DNA from: Candidatus Syntropharchaeum caldarium
Lineage (GTDB): Archaea; Halobacteriota; Syntropharchaeia; Syntropharchaeales; Syntropharchaeaceae
Length of the DNA stretch: 6,196 nucleotides
NCBI GenBank assembly: GCA_001766815.1
Contig: LYOS01000010.1
Coordinates: 1 to 6,196 of the forward strand
Direction of reading: 5' to 3'
In this document: positions 1 through 6,196 of the stretch, in pieces
Numbering within the stretch: position 1 is the first letter of the stretch
Layout of the letters: every line of letters starts with the position of its first letter
Translations under genes and position numbers: made by a program
Notes under the pieces: generated by a model
The model's input: the letters and a program-made list of their open reading frames with translations, nothing else
The model's database searches: none
What the model was told of the DNA's origin: nothing

Positions 1-1
1 A

Positions 2-610
2 AGGTGCAGTAGCGATTCCCTATCAACAATAGAAGGGTTCATCGATCATCTCACCAGAAGATGGCTTTTTATGCCCAGGGCTCTCAAGGAACTCAGAAAG
101 ATCAGGAAGAAGCTTGGTAAGAAACCGATAGATATGAAAAAGCTCGCAAAAAAGATTGCAAAGGCTCTGGATGAGATCGCACCATGCTTTCTTCTCTTTG
201 ATGAGATTGATCTGATAAGAGACAGGGATGAACTTCTCACAATTCTGCAGGAAGTTCTTGAGAGATCTGAGAAGGGTTTGATGATCGCGATAGCAGGAGA
301 CGCCAGGGTTGATAAAGGCATCAGGGTTGAGCTTGAACCGCTGACCTCCAAGGAAGCAGAACTCCTTATCGCAAAGCGGATACTTGCAGCACGAAGTGTC
401 GGCGATAATCTTGATCCAATCTTTCCATTCACAAAGGCTTCCGTAGGTCGTATCTACGATGATGTGGGAGGAAATCCAGGAGAGCTACTCGAGAGGATGA
501 AAGACCTCATCGATTCTGGAGTCAGGAGAAGAGTGATGATGATCGATGAAGAATTCGTTGAGCGTAGATATGAAGAAAGGAAGCGTGCCAGGTCTGGTGG
601 CTGTAAGTAA
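2..610 (+). CDS. AAA+ ATPase, 3' portion (5' end lies outside the window); AAA_22/ExeA- or Orc1/Cdc6-like
   Basis: The frame of the 71..610 ORF stays open back to base 2 (RCSSDSLSTIEGFIDHLTRRWLF precedes M71), so the gene enters from the left edge. The stop is TAA at 608-610. There is a Walker-B-like hhhhDE motif (CFLLFDEIDLI). 'VELEPLTSKEAELLIAKRI' and 'GGNPGELLERMKDL' resemble the lid/helical region of ExeA/AAA_22 and Orc1/Cdc6-type ATPases; this is recognised from memory. Walker A would lie upstream of the window. Confidence 0.75.
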   Translation, partial: RCSSDSLSTIEGFIDHLTRRWLFMPRALKELRKIRKKLGKKPIDMKKLAKKIAKALDEIAPCFLLFDEIDLIRDRDELLTILQEVLERSEKGLMIAIAGDARVDKGIRVELEPLTSKEAELLIAKRILAARSVGDNLDPIFPFTKASVGRIYDDVGGNPGELLERMKDLIDSGVRRRVMMIDEEFVERRYEERKRARSGGCK

Positions 611-641
611 GGTGTAATCACATTGGCTCTAATTTTTGCAG

Positions 642-772
642 ATTGAGGGAAAAACCGTTACTTTAGAGGGAGATGTTGAGGATAAATATCGGTATGGAAG
701 GGTTTTGAGGCGTATTTTATACATTTGTAAACTTGGAAAAAGCTGAAGAGGTACTATCTAAGCATCTGGTGA
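642..772 (+). pseudogene. Decayed fragment of a second SNase-like (thermonuclease) gene
   Basis: 642-719 aligns codon by codon with 1549-1626 of the downstream nuclease gene, at about 54/78 nt by hand count. It encodes IEGKTVTLEGDVEDKYRYGRVLRRI, against IEGRTVRLEKDVEDKDQYGRLLRHI in the intact gene. Relative to the gene it then carries an 8-nt deletion and a ~70-nt deletion: 'acatttgtaaactt' at 721-734 is followed almost directly by 'gaaaaagctgaag' at 736-748, whereas these lie at 1637-1650 and 1721-1733 in the gene. There is no start codon and no N-terminal or catalytic motifs, and an in-frame stop follows the deletion. Confidence 0.6.
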
Positions 773-1151
773 CTATCCCCTACAAAAAGCCAAAACTTCA
801 AAACTGCCTCTTTCTATGCTTCCTCTGCTTTTCAGGGATCGTGTAGAGATCTTCTGAAGATTTTACGGGTAGGATAGCAGTTTTCAAAACCTGATCTCGT
901 AGGATTCCCTGCAAGAGGGACAGATATATCCGCGGTATATTCGAAGCCGTTTGTGTACTCCTCAAAGATTGAGAGAAGATATATCACTATGCGAAAAGCT
1001 TTTAATAGACAGTTGAAAGATACGCTAACACCAAGGGTATGAAAGAGGTGTTCTATTCAATCACCAGAAAATTAGATTGTGCCCTCAAAAGCAATTGCGA
1101 GACAGCCTATTCAAAAGAGTTAGGACTTTAATGTAAAAGGAAGTAAAAAAT

Positions 1152-1433
1152 ATGAAGAATAAGATCATAGCGGGTTTAATAGCAACAATAGCCGTTGTAG
1201 CAGTCGTTGTGGTTTTGGACGTAATATTTGCAGATTCAGATGGTGATGGTTGGAGTGACTTTAAAGAAAAAATACTGGAACATATCCATACAATGTTGAT
1301 ACAGATGCTGATGGGATTTGGGGTCCGCATGATCCAGATCCATCAATTCCATCTTCAACTACATCAACAGAAACACCCGTATCTGCCCCTACACAGGAAT
1401 CAGAAACAACTTCTGCGATCGTATCCAGGGTAA
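1152..1433 (+). CDS. N-terminal fragment of the exported nuclease (signal anchor + Ca-binding-type DxDxDG repeat); meaningful only to ~1271, the rest is out of frame
   Basis: MKNKIIAGLIATIAVVAVVVVLDVIFA has a basic n-region, a hydrophobic h-region and a possible I-F-A cleavage site. It is followed by DSDGDGWSD, a thrombospondin-type-3-like acidic repeat. After the A6 run at 1267-1272 the translation becomes implausible (HIHTMLIQMLMGFGVRMIQIHQFHLQLHQQKH), while another frame continues with a second acidic repeat. Confidence 0.6.
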   Translation: MKNKIIAGLIATIAVVAVVVVLDVIFADSDGDGWSDFKEKILEHIHTMLIQMLMGFGVRMIQIHQFHLQLHQQKHPYLPLHRNQKQLLRSYPG

Positions 1434-1477
1434 TAGACGGCGATACTGTAAAATTACAAAATGGTGAAATAGTTAGA

Positions 1478-2137
1478 TTGCTCGGAATTAATGCGCCAGA
1501 GATGGGGCAACCATACTACGAAGAAGCGACAAATAGGTTAAAGGAATTAATTGAAGGGAGGACCGTACGTTTGGAGAAGGATGTTGAGGATAAGGACCAA
1601 TATGGGAGACTGCTAAGGCATATTTACATTGATGATACATTTGTAAACTTAGAGATGATTAGAGAAGGATACGCTAGCGTTTATATTACCCCTCCAAACA
1701 CGAAATATTCATACGAATTTGAAAAAGCTGAAGAAGAAGCTAAAAATGCTGAGAGAGGAATATGGCAACGATCAGAAGATTTATCTAAATGCATAGGCAT
1801 TCTTTATTTTCATTGGGATGCAGAAGGCAATGACTGCTATAATCTCAATGATGAATATGTCACTTTCAAAAATCCCTGCTCTGAGTCTATTGATATGACG
1901 GGTTGGACAGTTAAAGACGAGGCGAATCATATCTATACCTTTCCAGATTTCAGTCTGGCAGGTGGTGCCACAGTTACGTTGTATACAGGTTCAGGAAGGG
2001 ATACAAAGACAAAGTTATACTGGAATAGCAGCGGTCATACATGCAATGCAATATGGAACAATGCTGGTGATACACTTTATTTAAGGGATGCAGGCGGTAA
2101 CTTGGTGATAAGCTATCACTATAGTGGGTTTGAATAA
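1478..2137 (+). CDS. Thermonuclease (SNase-like) domain + C-terminal lamin-tail domain (LTD); the true coding frame extends upstream to 1265
   Basis: SNase motifs are present: VRLLGINAPE (compare S. aureus FRLLLVDTPE), DQYGRLLRHIY (compare DKYGRGLAYIY), NLEMIREGYA and AERGIW. The C-terminal ~110 aa (ILYFHWDAEGND...EYVTFKNP...IDMTGWTVKD...YTFP...LAGGATVTLYTGSG...IWNNAGDTLYLRDAGGNLV) matches the LTD pattern. The same frame is open back to 1265 (TAA at 1262-1264) and encodes ...NTGTYPYNVDTDADGIWGPHDPDP, an S/T-rich linker, then AIVSRVIDGDTVKLQNGEIVR. The TTG at 1478 therefore lies inside the conserved domain and is not a credible native start. Confidence 0.88.
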   Translation: MLGINAPEMGQPYYEEATNRLKELIEGRTVRLEKDVEDKDQYGRLLRHIYIDDTFVNLEMIREGYASVYITPPNTKYSYEFEKAEEEAKNAERGIWQRSEDLSKCIGILYFHWDAEGNDCYNLNDEYVTFKNPCSESIDMTGWTVKDEANHIYTFPDFSLAGGATVTLYTGSGRDTKTKLYWNSSGHTCNAIWNNAGDTLYLRDAGGNLVISYHYSGFE

Positions 2138-2175
2138 TTTTACCACAACATCCAATATATTTTTCATATATTTTG
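2138..2175 (+). terminator. Oligo-T tracts downstream of the nuclease gene (possible archaeal intrinsic termination signals)
   Basis: TTTT at 2138-2141, TTTTT at 2160-2164 and TTTT at 2171-2174 follow the TAA at 2135-2137. Archaeal RNA polymerase is known to terminate at oligo-T runs. There is no transcript evidence. Confidence 0.3.
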
Positions 2176-2253
2176 TAAAATAACTACAATTTCTACAAAC
2201 TTCTCTTTTGATTTAAGAAAATCTGGTATATATTCGATGAAACTATATATAAC

Positions 2254-2676
2254 ATGGGAAGGCGTGAGATGTTCATGTTTGCGATCATCATACTCCTTGA
2301 TACTGTGGACTGCATCTCAACCCGCTATGCGATAGGTAACAGTCTCGGGCATGAGGTGAACCCTTTTCTTATAGATATCGTTAATACTAATTCGTTCCTC
2401 CTTTTAAAGCCAACCCTGATCACATTTACACTTTTTGCCATCTACAAGACCTCAAATATATTCCATGATGATAATCTGACGTTCTTTGCAGCTACAGAGC
2501 TTATCATTCTCTATGCGCTTGTCTGTATCAACAACATCATGGTTCTCTTTCTTGGGGTTGATCTCAGCCTCTCATTTGCGAAGCTTATCCTGATAACACT
2601 GATATCTCTCGCTCTGGTTCTACTTGTGATGAAGGTGTATCATTCATGCTTCTCTCCATCTTCTCCTTCACACTGA
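2254..2676 (+). CDS. Small polytopic membrane protein, DUF5658-like
   Basis: The 140-aa product has about four hydrophobic segments. The N-terminal pattern 'IIILLDTVDCISTRYAIGNSLGHEVNPFL' (LD..D..T......G..E.NP) resembles the DUF5658 signature as I remember it. The native start may instead be the M at codon 6 or 8 (MFMFAII). Function is unknown. Confidence 0.7.
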   Translation: MGRREMFMFAIIILLDTVDCISTRYAIGNSLGHEVNPFLIDIVNTNSFLLLKPTLITFTLFAIYKTSNIFHDDNLTFFAATELIILYALVCINNIMVLFLGVDLSLSFAKLILITLISLALVLLVMKVYHSCFSPSSPSH

Positions 2677-2734
2677 TGCTCACCTGTTTTTCGATTATGA
2701 GATTACCGGTAATTCCAGTAAACCCAGGAACATC

Positions 2735-3182
2735 TCAATCACCTTTGAAGGCTTCAGCAATCGCTTCCTTCAGCTCTTCCACATTCAGCAGGAGATTCAG
2801 GTCTGGAGAGTATGGAGGGGGGTGAACCAGCCATCTCATCGATGGATCATGTGACTTTCTGTAGTCTTTCTGATAGGGACTGGCGTATCCCATTCCAGAT
2901 GTGTCCAGTCATCTCTCTCCTTCAGAATGGGTTTTAACTCCTCCTTCTGCTCATCGCTTAACTCTGAAGGTCCCTCTCTTCCGTAGTGATGAAGAAAAGC
3001 TTTCTCAGGACTTCTGAAGTGATTTTTCTCCTGCAAATTTCTTCGTTTAACTCCTCCTTTCGGGCTTTCGCCCCATATATTTGTTTTGTCTGAAGCCCGG
3101 GTAGCAGAAGTTGCCAGAGCCCTTTAGCGGTTGAGTTTACAAGTGATAAATAATAGAACGATACCTTAAAAGAAGGTGTCAC
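2735..3182 (-). mobile_element. IS630/Tc1-mariner-like transposase relic (multiple frameshifts, catalytic core deleted)
   Basis: Minus-strand pieces lie in three frames. 3036..2836 gives 'YGREGPSELSDEQKEELKPILKERDDWT', like the GRPxKLSxEQ...WT segment that follows the N-terminal HTH in IS630-type transposases. 2833..2735 gives 'WLVHPPPYSPDLNLLLNVEELKEAIAEAFKGD*'; the family motif is PPYSP(D/E)LNP(I/V)E, and here the NP-I-E part carrying the third catalytic acid is missing. 3182..2958 gives a degenerate N-terminal segment including 'GRKPERRS' in an alternate frame. Only ~450 nt remain, against ~1 kb for an intact gene. No terminal inverted repeats were identified. Confidence 0.6.
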
Positions 3183-3228
3183 ATAAAAAAGAGAGGGAAA
3201 GTCATAAAGCGACCGCTTGCTCTCATAT

Positions 3229-3380
3229 CACTCCCTTTTCATAGAAGAAGAAAGAGGAGTGGGTGTGGGTTGCAAACCAGCAGGAAATCCAATATGTGAC
3301 AAAATATATTGAGGTGAGATTGCTGGCACTTCATGAAGAAGATTCGCCGCACCACTCCTCTCATCTGTAGCTCTTCTTCT
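3229..3380. repeat. Inverted-repeat set able to form two mutually exclusive stem-loops
   Basis: AGAGGAGTGG (3253-3262) is complementary to CACTCCCTTTTC (3229-3240), giving a 12-bp stem with one mismatch, one G-U pair and a 9-nt loop. It is also complementary to CCACTCCTCT (3352-3361). The distal pairing extends through AGAAGAAGAA (3243-3252) and CTCTTCTTCT (3371-3380), with a 9-nt bulge at 3362-3370. Confidence 0.5.
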
Positions 3381-3506
3381 TTAGGTGTAGATAATATCTC
3401 GCCTAACTAAGTTAGGATACGTTCTCAATTACCGAGATATATTAGGAAACGCTCCCAAAACCTAATTTTATTAGGATCATCCTTATTAGCACCTAATAAC
3501 CATCAA
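3381..3506. promoter_or_regulatory. Phased array of CCTAA-N5-TTAGG palindromes plus a putative TATA region upstream of the pilin-like gene
   Basis: Perfect palindromes lie at 3402-3416 (CCTAActaagTTAGG) and 3461-3475 (CCTAAttttaTTAGG). A degenerate copy lies at 3432-3446 (CCGAGatataTTAGG), with half-sites TTAGG at 3381-3385 and CCTAA at 3492-3496. Site starts are spaced 30, 29 and 31 bp. The AT-rich TTATTAG at 3483-3489 lies -34..-28 from the ATG at 3517, a plausible TATA box if the mRNA is leaderless or short-leadered. Confidence 0.5.
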
Positions 3507-3516
3507 ACTTTGATTT

Positions 3517-5031
3517 ATGAGGCCATGTCTGATAGAGGATACAGAGGCAGTGTCTGTAATCATCGGTGTGATGCTTCTGATAATCGTTGTCGTGACCGCT
3601 GTAACAGCGCTTGCTTATATTGTATCAGGTATCCAGGAGGATGCAGCAGAGAAGGCAATGCTTGCGGCTGCAATGGATCGTGAAGAGCTTGATATCCTCG
3701 GGATCACATTGTATGAAGAGGCAATGATCGATGACTTCGAGGGTGTGTATGAGGTTGTTGAGGGGAAAGAGGGGAGTGAGATCGGATACAGGATACTTAA
3801 TACAACACCGGCGTGGAGCTTCTCTGGATGTACCTGGGAGCTGAGAGAACAGCAGGTTGGAGCCGGAAAATACTGTATTCGGGTTAACGGTAGCGGAGGT
3901 ACGCTAACCAGAACCTTCTCTGAAGAGTTTGACCCCGGGACCGTGAGCTTCTGGATAAGGAGTACCGATAACATCACCCTTTCTTTTGGCACAGGTGGTA
4001 ATCAAACCATCTGCAGCACAGGAGGAGTATGGAAAAAAAGAAGCGCTACATCCATCAGCCCTTTCAGCGAGATTACCTTTACATTGAACACCAGTGAAGT
4101 CTTTCTCGACGAGATCAGCTATACTAACCCCAGTTACTGGGGCGGGTGCGAGGTTACAATCAGAAACACGAACATCGATCCCTGCACCCTGAAAGAGATT
4201 GCAATCCAGGTCGGTGAGACGACGCTTTTTGCCAGAGACTACTCTATCTTCTTCAAAGAGGGCAATAAATGGAAGAAGCAGGTGTTCACACCCCGTTACC
4301 CCTATGATATACCACCACAGCAGAGTGTACCTGTAAAGCTAAATTTCCTGAAGAGTTTTGGAGAGCCCCGAAAGGTACAGCGTGGCTATCCGCACTCACT
4401 CGGTGTGATTGCGATAACAGGTTTTGGAAACAACTTTGCAAGATGCTTTGCACCACCTGTTCCGATTGCTCACATAGGTATAGCGAGCGAAGATATCGGT
4501 GTTACATATCGAGACATCCTGATACTTGATGCAACCGATTCCTATGATCCTGATGGGTTTATCACGGAGTATCGGTGGGTGATCAATGGAAGCAGTAATT
4601 TATACAACCGCACAGGGAGGAAACTCAGACTGGGAGTGAACGAGACAGGACCTTTTGAGATAGACCTGATCGTGACCGATGATACAGGAATGGTGAGCAG
4701 ACTCAGCCAGATCTCAGGAAATATTACGATAGCTGAGAATCGTAACTTTAACCCACCTGTGAGTCTGGAGGCTAAATATACTAAAAGCACCCATAACATA
4801 ACCGCATGGGTGAATGATTCATGGGGTAACGGTCTTGAGGGGTATCCTGTCAGGGCCAATGTAGCAGCGAATGATAACGCAAGCAAGCCGGTGAAATTAG
4901 AAAAATGGTCCGATGTCACGGATAGCAATGGAATGGTCACGTTACCGGTGGATTCAGGAAGTGGAAACGGAACCGTCTATATCAGCTGTGACGCGATCTC
5001 GTATGATGTAGCTCTGCGTATAGAGGTGTGA
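3517..5031 (+). CDS. Modular surface protein with archaeal type IV pilin-like (class III) signal peptide, lectin-like beta-jelly-roll region, PKD domain and C-terminal Ig-like domain
   Basis: The N-terminus MRPCLIEDTEA|VSVIIGVMLLIIVVVTAVTALAYIVSG fits the archaeal Pilin_N/DUF1628 pattern (charged residue, then G/A, then a hydrophobic helix; compare ...RAVSPVIGVILMVAITV...). ~3730-4125 reads DDFEG...W.F.G..W...G.Y.IRV...GTLTRTF...GTVSFWIRS...ITF.L....VFLDEISY, a CBM/LamG-like pattern. ~4490-4740 reads ILDATDSYDPDGFITEYRWVINGS...GPFEIDLIVTDDTGM, a PKD signature. ~4750-5028 reads ITAWVNDSWGNGLEGYPV...VTDSNGMVTLPV...GTVYISCDA, which is Big_1/Ig-like. I count about 13 N-x-S/T sequons and 8 Cys. 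There is no C-terminal anchor. Confidence 0.85.
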   Translation: MRPCLIEDTEAVSVIIGVMLLIIVVVTAVTALAYIVSGIQEDAAEKAMLAAAMDREELDILGITLYEEAMIDDFEGVYEVVEGKEGSEIGYRILNTTPAWSFSGCTWELREQQVGAGKYCIRVNGSGGTLTRTFSEEFDPGTVSFWIRSTDNITLSFGTGGNQTICSTGGVWKKRSATSISPFSEITFTLNTSEVFLDEISYTNPSYWGGCEVTIRNTNIDPCTLKEIAIQVGETTLFARDYSIFFKEGNKWKKQVFTPRYPYDIPPQQSVPVKLNFLKSFGEPRKVQRGYPHSLGVIAITGFGNNFARCFAPPVPIAHIGIASEDIGVTYRDILILDATDSYDPDGFITEYRWVINGSSNLYNRTGRKLRLGVNETGPFEIDLIVTDDTGMVSRLSQISGNITIAENRNFNPPVSLEAKYTKSTHNITAWVNDSWGNGLEGYPVRANVAANDNASKPVKLEKWSDVTDSNGMVTLPVDSGSGNGTVYISCDAISYDVALRIEV

Positions 5032-5035
5032 GTGA

Positions 5036-5357
5036 ATCGATACGATCGAAAGAGATACAAGAATTCTCGAACGGCTGTACTTCGTAAGATACCTCTACAG
5101 AAGAATGAGCGTTGAGGAATTTGGTAGGAGTTACCATACGAAGGTTTAATTCCAGAATTTGGTGGAGGAAGGTCGTCCAAGCTGACGGAAGAGCAGCAAG
5201 AATACTTCGTTAACACCTGATATTCTCACCTTAATCTCTGAAGAAGATTGCAAGACTTTTCAGGGAAGCTTATGAGCAGAATGCCTTGCTAACTCACAGT
5301 GATGTTGCATTCCTTTTGCATGTTTCTACTGCAACTGTTAGTAAGCAGGTAGTTTAG
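5036..5357 (+). mobile_element. Frameshifted HTH / transposase-N-terminal-like relic (IS630-type N-terminus; last segment DUF1670-like)
   Basis: Three consecutive open segments lie in three frames. 5036-5149 gives 'RDTRILERLYFVRYLYRRMSVEEFGRSYHTKV*'. 5149-5220 gives 'IPEFGGGRSSKLTEEQQEYFVNT*', containing the GGGRxxKL(S/T)xEQ motif of archaeal IS630-like transposase N-termini. 5235-5357 gives 'KKIARLFREAYEQNALLTHSDVAFLLHVSTATVSKQVV*', an HTH-like segment that resembles Methanosarcina DUF1670 proteins from memory. No DDE catalytic region follows. Confidence 0.5.
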
Positions 5358-5403
5358 AAAAACCTAAACTTATTAGGCAATGGTTTTTCTATCCCTAACA
5401 ACC
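5358..5403. promoter_or_regulatory. Two-box element (CCTAAacttaTTAGG + CCTAACAACC) and putative TATA region upstream of the MFS gene
   Basis: A perfect palindrome lies at 5363-5377, preceded by AAAAA. CCTAACAACC lies at 5394-5403, 31 bp downstream of the palindrome start. The T-rich TTTTTCTA at 5384-5391 lies -34..-27 from the ATG at 5418. The layout and spacing match the pilin-like gene promoter. Confidence 0.45.
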
Positions 5404-5417
5404 TCTATGCTCTATAT

Positions 5418-6196
5418 ATGCGAAAAGAGACAGTGGTATATGCGATTTTGATATTTGTAGCGATGCTGAGTCTCACGCTTATGGCACCTGTGATAAAGGA
5501 GTTTGTTATCGACCGCTTCGATGTGAGCAATACCGTGGCAAGTCTGTTTTTCACGCTTGAGATCCTCGCCTACGTGATTTTTGCCGTTTTCTGGGGTTCA
5601 CTCTCTGATACGTGCGGTAAGAGAAGACCTTTTATCATTTTTGGGTTTGGTAGCTCTGCAATAATGTATTTCTGGATGGCACAGGTGAACTCACTCTTCT
5701 CTCTTCTGATGTTGAGGTTCATACAGGGGGCTGTCACGGTTATGGCGTGGTCGATTGTGATGACAGCCGCGCTGGACGGTGTGGATAAGCGAGACCATGG
5801 CAGGACAATGGGTGTGATTGGGATGGCAATGATGTTTGGGATGGGCTCAGGAGCACCGATAGGAGGCTTGCTTGCAGCAAAGTATGGTGTCTTTTTTCCG
5901 ATGTATTTCGCATCCTCTCTCTTTCTTGCAGGTATGCTGATCGCAATAGCCCTGGTGCCTGAATCCCATATCGCAAACAAACCTGATACAATGCGAGAAT
6001 CGATCAACGTCCTTCTTGAGAAGAGAGATCTTGCGATTCCTTTTGTCTTCGGTTTTATCGATAGGTTTACGGTTGCATTTTTTATCTTCGCATTTCCACT
6101 GTACATGAGTGAGGCTTTCGGATCCGGTACCGCGGAACGGGGGATTTATCAGGCACTCCTCCTCCTACCTTTAGTCCTGCTCCAGTATCCGTTTGG
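5418..6196 (+). CDS. Major facilitator superfamily (MFS) transporter, 3'-truncated by the window edge
   Basis: This gene is absent from the supplied ORF track because it has no stop in the window. My translation from ATG 5418 (in-frame TAG at 5355-5357 upstream) is open to 6196: MRKETVVYAILIFVAMLSLTLMAPVIKEFVIDRFDVSNTVASLFFTLEILAYVIFAVFWGSLSDTCGKRRPFIIFGFGSSAIMYFWM...RFIQGAVTVMAWS...GRTMGVIGMAMMFGMGSGAPIGGLLAAKYG... It has the MFS motif A (G-x-L-S-D-x-x-G-[KR]-R-x-P) between TM2 and TM3 and at least six hydrophobic helices. Confidence 0.9.
   Translation, partial: MRKETVVYAILIFVAMLSLTLMAPVIKEFVIDRFDVSNTVASLFFTLEILAYVIFAVFWGSLSDTCGKRRPFIIFGFGSSAIMYFWMAQVNSLFSLLMLRFIQGAVTVMAWSIVMTAALDGVDKRDHGRTMGVIGMAMMFGMGSGAPIGGLLAAKYGVFFPMYFASSLFLAGMLIAIALVPESHIANKPDTMRESINVLLEKRDLAIPFVFGFIDRFTVAFFIFAFPLYMSEAFGSGTAERGIYQALLLLPLVLLQYPF

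Follow-up and report, generated by a model that had tools for sequence, protein, structure and literature searches.

A two-box module shared by pilin-like and transporter genes of Candidatus Syntropharchaeum caldarium is probably the operator and core promoter of a metal-responsive archaeal regulon

We analysed a stretch of 6,196 nucleotides from Candidatus Syntropharchaeum caldarium (contig LYOS01000010.1, positions 1 to 6,196; hereafter the window), in which a pilin-like surface protein gene and an MFS transporter gene are each preceded by a palindromic box (box 1), a 16-nt spacer and a shorter second box (box 2). Our data indicate that these two-box elements are probably the operator and core-promoter modules of a metal-responsive regulon, with Fe2+ the most likely metal, in Syntropharchaeia, ANME-1, Methanosarcinales and Methanotrichaceae. 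As judged by sequence comparison, the module is an iron-regulon element widespread in Halobacteriota, and the pilin-like gene and the transporter gene most likely belong to one metal-controlled gene set. A first-pass annotation of the window had proposed that the boxes are under selection, that they flank a TATA box and that they co-regulate the two genes. These proposals were supported, whereas its labelling of box 1 as an activator site and box 2 as a repressor site is unproven, and it had overlooked both the membership in an iron regulon and the loss of the likely regulator gene from this locus.

Re-reading of the window reproduced all coordinates and sequences of the two boxes (Table 1). 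The two copies of box 1 are identical at 17 of 19 positions and those of box 2 at 9 of 10, and the spacers, 16 nt long in both promoters, agree at 3 of 16 positions. The offset from CCTAA to CCTAA is 31 bp in both, and the distance from the end of the palindrome to the ATG, taken as a coordinate difference, is 42 nt for the pilin-like gene and 41 nt for the MFS gene. The start codons (ATG at 3517 and 5418) open the N-termini MRPCLIEDTEA and MRKETVVYAIL, which are kept in relatives. Within the window the box 1 pattern, with up to three mismatches, matched twice against 0.03 expected, and the core palindrome CCTAA-N5-TTAGG matched three times against 0.18 expected, a number that 0 of 200 shuffles reached. 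Box 2 alone was not significant in the window (2 matches against 0.51 expected; 17 of 200 shuffles reached 2). The window holds 11 TTAGG or CCTAA pentamers, 10 of them within the two intergenic promoter regions. The remaining one, at 1120, stands alone in about 6 kb. Base composition predicts about 13 pentamers per window, and their scarcity elsewhere may reflect avoidance of stray sites.

A 42-nt matrix was trained on 67 sites from other lineages, with the window genome and the loci L003 to L005 left out. It scored the MFS promoter (5359-5400) at 42.0 bits, the pilin-like promoter (3457-3498) at 28.3 bits and a third site on the minus strand (3379-3420) at 23.1 bits. The next-best position in the window reached -1.1 bits and the shuffle maximum was 6.6 bits, so that the window contains three sites only. 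A scan of the window for sigma-70 promoters and terminators gave counts at or below the shuffle level and is uninformative for an archaeon.

The geometry of the module is strict across lineages. For all spacings from 0 to 20, pairs of the two pentamers were counted across 684 kb surrounding 80 regulator homologues, where about 0.65 occurrences are expected for each spacing. TTAGG-N16-CCTAA was found 66 times, TTAGG-N4-CCTAA 27 times, CCTAA-N5-TTAGG 26 times, TTAGG-N14-CCTAA 15 times and CCTAA-N19-TTAGG 8 times; the remaining spacings occurred 0-5 times each, nearly all 0-2 times, with N15 and N17 at 0-1. What is best conserved is therefore a unit made up of the right half of box 1, a gap of exactly 16 nt and box 2. 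From 74 non-redundant oriented sites, the consensus is ..CC.AACttttTTaGGtTTttt...cAAAACCgAAc.TTtTTAGGG.a.g.TaTtTat.taCCTAAca. It includes the AAAA prefix and up to three palindromes phased at 29-31 bp, which places them on one helix face, and the box 1 of the pilin-like promoter fits its part cAAAACCgAAc.TTtTTAGGG. The spacer of the consensus holds a clear TATA box (TaTtTat), the family sequence there being TTATTTATG, which bears out the earlier placement of a TATA box in the spacer. Operator DNA thus abuts the TATA box both on the side of the TFB recognition element (BRE) and on the side of the transcription start site (TSS), as in the family sequence TTAGGG.a.g.TaTtTat.taCCTAA; the cores in the window are weaker and lie in the same place. 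From the family spacer consensus G.a.g.TaTtTat.ta, the spacer of the pilin-like promoter presumably acts as a TATA box, and the BRE position of this promoter overlaps the right half of box 1. Many family promoters also carry an element of the N4 type, GTTAGGGCAACCTAA, 15-25 nt 3' of box 2.

In the corresponding loci of two related genomes (L003 and L004, about 83-96% DNA identity across matched blocks), the two-box layout precedes four genes, namely those for the pilin-like protein, the MFS transporter, a flavodoxin and a DtxR/MntR-like regulator. The flavodoxin promoter there reads CCTAATTTTCTTAGG, the 16 nt gtttgttatttatgca and CCTAAC, and the regulator-gene promoter reads CCTAAAATTATTAGG, the 16 nt gtagcatatataatta and CCTAAT, followed by GGAGG and a start codon. 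At 43-49% identity, the pilin-like orthologues of L005 and L089 still have the full two-box promoter at the same short distance from the ATG; the promoter is agaaCCTAAATCTTTTAGG gtccggtatatttata CCTAACA in L005, and gaaaaCCTAATTTTATTAGG gttagtcttattaaaa CCTAA, 15 nt and ATG in L089. In L089 a divergent two-box copy drives an operon of TPR, T2SSE, T2SSF and T2SSF genes. Other pilin-like orthologues adjoin two FeoA genes (L088), a split-FeoB module (L087) or the regulator gene (L086). No full module lies directly upstream of the pilin-like gene in these three loci; in L087 the FeoB-KaiC part has a two-box promoter of its own. Across the orthologous pilin promoters (43-78% protein identity) the boxes are kept while the flanks diverge, which supports selection on the boxes, as first proposed, and not a recent duplication.

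The genes behind the module point to iron. In the regulator-centred loci (n = 39) the gene directly downstream encodes FeoA in 16 cases, a ZinT-like protein in 4, a CbiX-domain protein in 4 and a flavodoxin in 2; DUF3793 proteins and the regulator itself also occur. Because this sample is biased towards the regulator's neighbourhood, a metagenome scan was made with the motif alone (AAAACCKAA-N5-TTAGG-N16-CCTAA). At least 120 stretches matched, of which 80 loci were listed. Nearly all of the listed loci have the family spacer, and in them the N16 spacing occurs 94 times and N15 and N17 never. Among the 63 distinct downstream proteins of these 80 contigs, 26 have a FeoA domain, followed by surface proteins: beta-helix/NosD (6 and 4), cohesin of the cohesin/dockerin type (4), CARDB (3) and PKD proteins. 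DUF3793 and DUF2325 proteins are also found downstream, and the listed contigs include a regulator-like gene in 4 of 80 and a pilin-like homologue in 2 of 80. Module sites thus precede metal-homeostasis genes (FeoA, flavodoxin, ZinT-like and split FeoB), and in at least four archaeal orders they stand before FeoA genes. As predicted from these members, the regulon consists of iron uptake and a surface-protein branch, and the pilin-like gene fits the surface branch. Many genes of one functional class have this module in front of them, and on that ground the pilin-like and MFS genes can be placed in one co-regulated set, as had been suggested from the two window promoters.

The candidate regulator is a 155-aa protein of the DtxR/MntR family. 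Its gene follows the pilin-like gene in L003 (6724-7188) and L004 and carries its own copy of the module. Homologues sharing 55-68% identity are found in Syntropharchaeia, ANME-1/Methanophagales, Methanosarcinales and Methanotrichaceae. Of the 80 regulator loci, 25 have an exact site no more than 300 nt from the regulator gene, and the module precedes that gene in L003, L004 and L085. The closest solved structure is Bacillus subtilis MntR in the PDB (5.6e-27), and the best NCBIfam model is also MntR, at 124.7 bits and under the equivalog cut-off of 138. Invariant Cys102, Glu105 and His106 match the metal ligands of DtxR, and Asp stands at the position of DtxR Met10. Metal preference can reportedly be read from ligand residues by the selectivity rules of Guedon and Helmann, and the pattern is weakly in favour of Fe2+ rather than Mn2+. 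Under perceived iron limitation, the DtxR and FeoAB proteins of Methanococcus voltae increase together (PMC8516115). Right after the regulator gene, many lineages have a conserved protein of 53-65 aa (MDEMELTRLMKEL...IKRELGSWFIDGYSLYQAS) with no family match (L008 1887-2048, L016 6685-6846, L036 4612-4776, and loci L049, L066, L078 and L079). Its promoter contains both the two-box module and a TTAGG-N4-CCTAA element.

Taken together, the module can be described as a same-face phased array that consists of optional distal palindromes, AAAA-CC(T/G)AA-N5-TTAGG as box 1, 16 nt with the TATA box, and CCTAA as box 2. A metal-loaded regulator of the DtxR/MntR family is predicted to bind this array. 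In archaea, the TATA box has its centre about 26-27 nt before the TSS, with the BRE directly on its upstream side. With the TATA box at spacer positions 7-13, the TSS would fall about 15 nt past the CCTAA core. By extrapolation from the TATA position it would be near 3511 for the pilin-like gene and near 5413 for the MFS gene, 4-6 nt before the ATGs. The equal distance from box to ATG in the two window promoters is best explained by both messenger RNAs being nearly leaderless, as predicted here; family promoters with Shine-Dalgarno leaders have longer distances. The right half of box 1 would cover the BRE position; box 2, at about -20 to -11, would fall between the TATA box and the TSS. Because of these positions a bound regulator would repress. 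It would clamp the TATA region and exclude TBP, TFB and RNA polymerase; exclusion of TBP/TFB or polymerase by an operator-bound protein is the classical mode of archaeal repression, of the MDR1, LrpA and Phr type. Low metal would then lead to derepression, and the pilin-like gene and the operon of the MFS and radical SAM genes would be switched on alongside the FeoA/FeoB ferrous-iron uptake genes.

Several observations weigh against a metal-responsive operator read by this regulator. The order of the half-sites, everted in CCTAA-N5-TTAGG and distant in TTAGG-N16-CCTAA, differs from the TTAGG-N4-CCTAA bound by one dimer of DtxR or TroR. The window contains no TTAGG-N4-CCTAA, and CCTAA-N5-TTAGG, TTAGG-N14-CCTAA and TTAGG-N16-CCTAA are present instead. 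It is not obviously possible for one protein to bind both layouts, and several genomes carry at least two paralogues. Both window promoters have TATA-like cores that fall short of the family consensus, and MFS genes do not recur downstream of the module in other lineages, either in the regulator-centred or in the listed motif-selected set. No DtxR-family gene is present in the window or in positions 6520-22842 (16.3 kb) of its 22,842-nt contig, the gene having been lost at this locus, and the latter region has no further module site. A search for the regulator of the window genome returned P0049, from a different sample, as the sole near-identical protein.

The unusual geometry could mean that the same cis-module has a different reader, such as a second DtxR paralogue, an HTH_45 protein or a dedicated TFB or TBP variant, and that the neighbouring MntR-like regulator recognises canonical TTAGG-N4-CCTAA sites only. 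The everted N5 and long N16 arrangements are unlike the known N4 geometry of one dimer, the N4 sites form a separate element 15-25 nt 3' of box 2 in many promoters, and several metagenome-assembled genomes (MAGs) carry two or more regulator paralogues. In addition, rigidity to a single nucleotide relative to the TATA box, with N15 and N17 absent, is unusual for a free-standing operator and would suit a factor that contacts TBP or TFB; joint binding with basal factors could also produce it. This explanation is nevertheless unlikely, since all the elements share the same pentamers and the module adjoins the MntR-like gene far above chance, preceding that very gene in three loci.

A regulator of the DtxR/MntR family could also act in the opposite direction. 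The first-pass annotation had viewed box 1 as an activator site upstream of the BRE and TATA box, in which case the regulator would turn two weak promoters on. The TATA-like cores in the window are indeed weak, and archaeal activators usually bind just upstream of the BRE. Some targets of TroR are activated (PMC10783522). However, the same module has near-consensus TATA boxes across the family and drives iron-uptake genes, a kind of gene that DtxR-family proteins classically repress when loaded with metal. The predicted TSS is downstream of box 2, which itself follows the TATA box, and the BRE position is covered by the right half of box 1. A rigid TTAGG-N16-CCTAA straddling a near-consensus TATA box fits occlusion, and thus repression, better, and the activator and repressor labels are unproven. 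We regard activation as rather improbable.

A role of the palindrome as an RNA or DNA hairpin (attenuator, processing site or cruciform) is very improbable, because the palindromes show no compensatory variation and an Rfam search of the window gave no match. Box 1 of the pilin promoter does differ between the window and L003 by one symmetric double change (CCTAAT..ATTAGG to CCTAAC..GTTAGG) that preserves a 6-bp stem. In 40 distinct palindromes, however, the inner positions 6/10 were complementary in 11 cases against 12.4 expected and positions 7/9 in 10 against 12.5 expected. The element is also located 5' of the predicted TSS, and its stem would have no more than 5 bp.

The DUF1670 relic stops 2 nt before box 1 of the MFS promoter, but an origin of the boxes as a terminus of this relic, which resembles an insertion sequence (IS), or as a recent duplication with no regulatory role has a negligible probability, as L003 and L004 have the identical MFS promoter and no relic, the module is found before FeoA genes in at least four orders, and the window spacers share so few positions. 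The synteny with L003 and L004 rules out both origins. In these genomes the order is the MFS gene (minus strand); the flavodoxin, DUF2023, pilin-like and regulator genes (plus strand); and the DUF5658, AAA, KaiC-like and split FeoB genes (minus strand). By blastn, window 3096-5038 corresponds to L003 4332-6636, and window 5358-6196 to L003 4066-3274 in opposite orientation. The comparison indicates that the window genome carries an inversion bounded by foreign or IS-like relics, 2691-3095 on the left and the DUF1670 relic 5039-5357 on the right; the matching junctions in L003 are 4066/4067 and 6636/6637. The window locus has lost the flavodoxin gene, most of DUF2023 and the regulator gene along with its promoter. 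The ancestral divergent promoter pair of the MFS and flavodoxin genes was broken exactly between its two palindromes, and the MFS promoter has lost its distal palindrome. Homology resumes at 5358, just outside box 1, and in L003 and L004 the MFS promoter matches the window at 100% from box 1 through the spacer to box 2. The boxes are therefore older than the DUF1670 relic, and the segment 5358-5403, which it had been thought might be the end of an IS relic, is not one. A coding extension of the relic into the boxes was also rejected; the translations resemble each other only within the matching DNA boxes, and at the protein level the spacers have nothing in common. In L003 the MFS gene is split into two calls (3608-3991 and 2901-3638; 127 and 245 aa) and the flavodoxin (4160-4363) has only 67 aa, so parts of the regulon may be decaying there too.

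Table 1. Features of the window (positions in the 6,196-nt stretch)
Feature	Position	Strand	Description
Box 1, pilin-like promoter	3457-3475	+	AAAACCTAATTTTATTAGG; AAAA prefix and palindrome CCTAATTTTATTAGG
Spacer, pilin-like promoter	3476-3491	+	16 nt, atcatccttattagca; weak TATA-like core CTTATTAG
Box 2, pilin-like promoter	3492-3501	+	CCTAATAACC; conserved core is the half-site CCTAA(ca)
Box 1, MFS promoter	5359-5377	+	AAAACCTAAACTTATTAGG; AAAA prefix and palindrome CCTAAACTTATTAGG
Spacer, MFS promoter	5378-5393	+	16 nt, caatggtttttctatc; T-rich TATA-like core; TATA position according to the family consensus
Box 2, MFS promoter	5394-5403	+	CCTAACAACC
Third two-box promoter	3379-3420	-	Box 2 is TTAGG 3381-3385 (plus strand); 16-nt spacer 3386-3401; palindrome 3402-3416
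Degenerate middle palindrome	3432-3446		CCGAGATATATTAGG; matches the family consensus TTaGG-N14-CCgAA
Pilin-like surface protein gene	3517-5031	+	504 aa; archaeal type IV pilin N-terminus; jelly-roll/CBM-like, PKD and Ig-like domains
MFS_1 transporter gene, 5' part	5418-6196	+	Full length 383 aa; MFS_1 at 8.6e-31
DUF1670 pseudogene relic, frameshifted	5039-5357	+	PF07900 match recorded for a 39-aa fragment; three-frame translation shows frameshifts; outside the regulatory module
Foreign segment	2691-3095	-	No counterpart in L003/L004 (blastn); short open reading frames without Pfam match; stands where the regulator gene was

On the pilin side the inventory of the first-pass annotation was correct for the two promoters and incomplete beyond them, as it had missed the palindromes at 3402-3416 and 3432-3446 and the minus-strand promoter. 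Read on the minus strand, the spacer of this third promoter is cgagatattatctaca and its palindrome is CCTAACTAAGTTAGG; on the plus strand the same palindrome doubles as the distal element of the pilin-like array. The TTAGG of the middle palindrome sits 14 nt before box 1, and the phasing of 29-31 bp is maintained through the array. The third promoter is kept in L003 and L004 and faces away from the pilin-like gene. The sole open reading frame downstream of it (3239-3364, minus strand, 41 aa) was rejected as its target, the frame not being conserved in L003 and L004. The product of the third promoter may be a non-coding or antisense RNA; alternatively, this promoter may be left over from the divergent arrangement of L089, in which the pilus assembly operon is driven from the same position. 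Two further observations were made on this intergenic region. A block of 35 nt at 3273-3307 (CAAACCAGCAGGAAATCCAATATGTGACAAAATAT) is identical in the window, L003 and L004, has no Rfam match, and lies in surroundings that are about 83% identical and rich in insertions and deletions. L003 also contains a partial paralogous copy (850-951, 77% identity) of the distal part of the pilin promoter, with a degenerate proximal palindrome (CCTAATTTTGTTCGG) and no gene behind it.

A search for the Pilin_N type of N-terminus (class III signal peptide and hydrophobic helix) with E<=0.01 matched 22 of 23 members of the pilin-like family; the window protein scored 22.2 bits, under the Pfam cut-off of 25.2. 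Its AlphaFold2 model is mediocre, with a mean pLDDT of 65.8 and values below 50 for the N-terminal 56 residues. A fold search with this model returned generic multi-domain beta-sandwich ectodomains and a CBM29-like module, and none of the matches points specifically to iron. An identical protein sequence is present in the Candidatus Syntrophoarchaeum butanivorans MAG GCA_011052865.1 and in a 22.8-kb Logan contig. T2SSE and two T2SSF genes, for the assembly ATPase and the membrane platform, are on the same contig as the pilin-like gene. A long operon upstream of the window (L090 1-9304) encodes a TPR protein, a T2SSE ATPase, two T2SSF proteins, a 108-aa protein, a split FeoB (G domain and Gate domains), an ArlH/KaiC-like ATPase and an AAA protein. 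The MFS gene is followed on its 3' side by a HemN/ChuW-like radical SAM gene, whose best NCBIfam match is ChuW/HutW (7e-64, under the family cut-off) and whose orthologue lies at L003 1528-2883. ChuW/HutW is an anaerobic heme-degrading methyltransferase, and this match hints that the radical SAM protein, which is co-transcribed with the MFS transporter, has a role in retrieving iron from heme. The foreign segment at 2691-3095 may be a transposase relic. Further to the left, an insertion at 631-2079 that is absent in L003 and L004 carries a gene for a secreted thermonuclease (SNase) with a lamin-tail domain. This gene is split by a frameshift at an A-run (about 1263-1272), with one open reading frame at 1152-1433 continuing in another frame at 1478-2137, and a short degenerate copy of part of it lies at about 640-790.

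A wider reading of these results is tentative. Alkane- and methane-oxidising archaea and their methanogenic relatives might place a type IV pilus-like surface apparatus under iron control, including the pilin-like CBM/PKD protein, T2SSE and T2SSF, the split FeoB and other large surface proteins. This control would use a previously undescribed binding mode of the DtxR family, a same-face array in which the final two half-sites, with an invariant spacing of 16 nt, clamp the TATA box. If this is true, these archaea would build an iron-starvation-induced surface organelle for acquiring iron, for example from minerals. Because none of the Syntrophoarchaeum and anaerobic methanotrophic (ANME) archaea is in pure culture, we know of no experimental work on their gene regulation. 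A strict and recognisable module offers a route from sequence to lists of iron-starvation genes in uncultured lineages, and it indicates unexpected members of the regulon: the pilin-like adhesin, pilus assembly genes, giant surface proteins and the MFS and HemN/ChuW-like operon. It also provides a defined DNA target for studying the action of a DtxR-family protein at an archaeal TATA promoter. The window genome itself is a natural mutant, in which an IS-bounded rearrangement has deleted the genes for the regulator and the flavodoxin and split the divergent promoter pair.

Related systems have been described in archaea and bacteria. Leyn and Rodionov (2015, J Bacteriol 197:451) are said to have predicted regulons of the DtxR family (FetR, MntR and ZntR) in cultured archaea including Methanosarcinales, with palindromic motifs, in ten groups, upstream of FeoAB and other metal transporter and regulator genes. 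To our knowledge that work does not cover Syntrophoarchaeum or ANME genomes, the pilin-like gene or the TATA-straddling N16 rule. A comparative-genomics paper on ANME archaea makes no mention of FeoB, DtxR, pilin, type IV pili or iron uptake, and a census of archaeal type IV pili reports KaiC-linked pili in Methanomicrobia and nothing on iron. Unlike Bacillus subtilis MntR, the archaeal protein has Cys at the position of MntR Glu99, as in DtxR, and its neighbour genes point to iron and not to manganese. The iron box of bacterial DtxR and IdeR is TTAGGTTAGCCTAACCTAA, a 19-bp site in a bacterial promoter bound by two dimers on opposite faces. The half-site pentamers, the repressor fold family and the primary-site Cys, Glu and His ligands are the same in the archaeal system. 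The array described here differs in lying on one face with a phasing of 29-31 bp in an archaeal TATA promoter, and the regulator has no SH3-like third domain and resembles MntR more closely. MDR1 of Archaeoglobus fulgidus, a DtxR homologue studied by Bell et al. (1999), reportedly uses several operators in the core promoter and blocks recruitment of polymerase. The consensus reported for MDR1 is GTT-N8,9-AAC and not TTAGG/CCTAA (PMC3074139). A close parallel is TroR of Haloferax volcanii, a member of the DtxR family that binds TTTAGGC-NNN-CCTAAA, with tandem motifs about 30 bp apart, and represses iron-uptake genes in an iron-dependent manner (PMC10783522). Its operator is likewise archaeal, shares the pentamers and occurs in tandem copies about 30 bp apart near the TATA box, often with several motif copies per promoter (PMC10783522). 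In contrast, the half-sites of TroR face each other across a 4-nt gap, whereas here they are everted with N5 and straddle the TATA box with N16, and the organisms and the targets (FeoA, pilin-like and surface proteins) are different. Operators of this kind are thus already known as a class, and what is new here is the set of target genes and the geometry that would clamp the TATA box.

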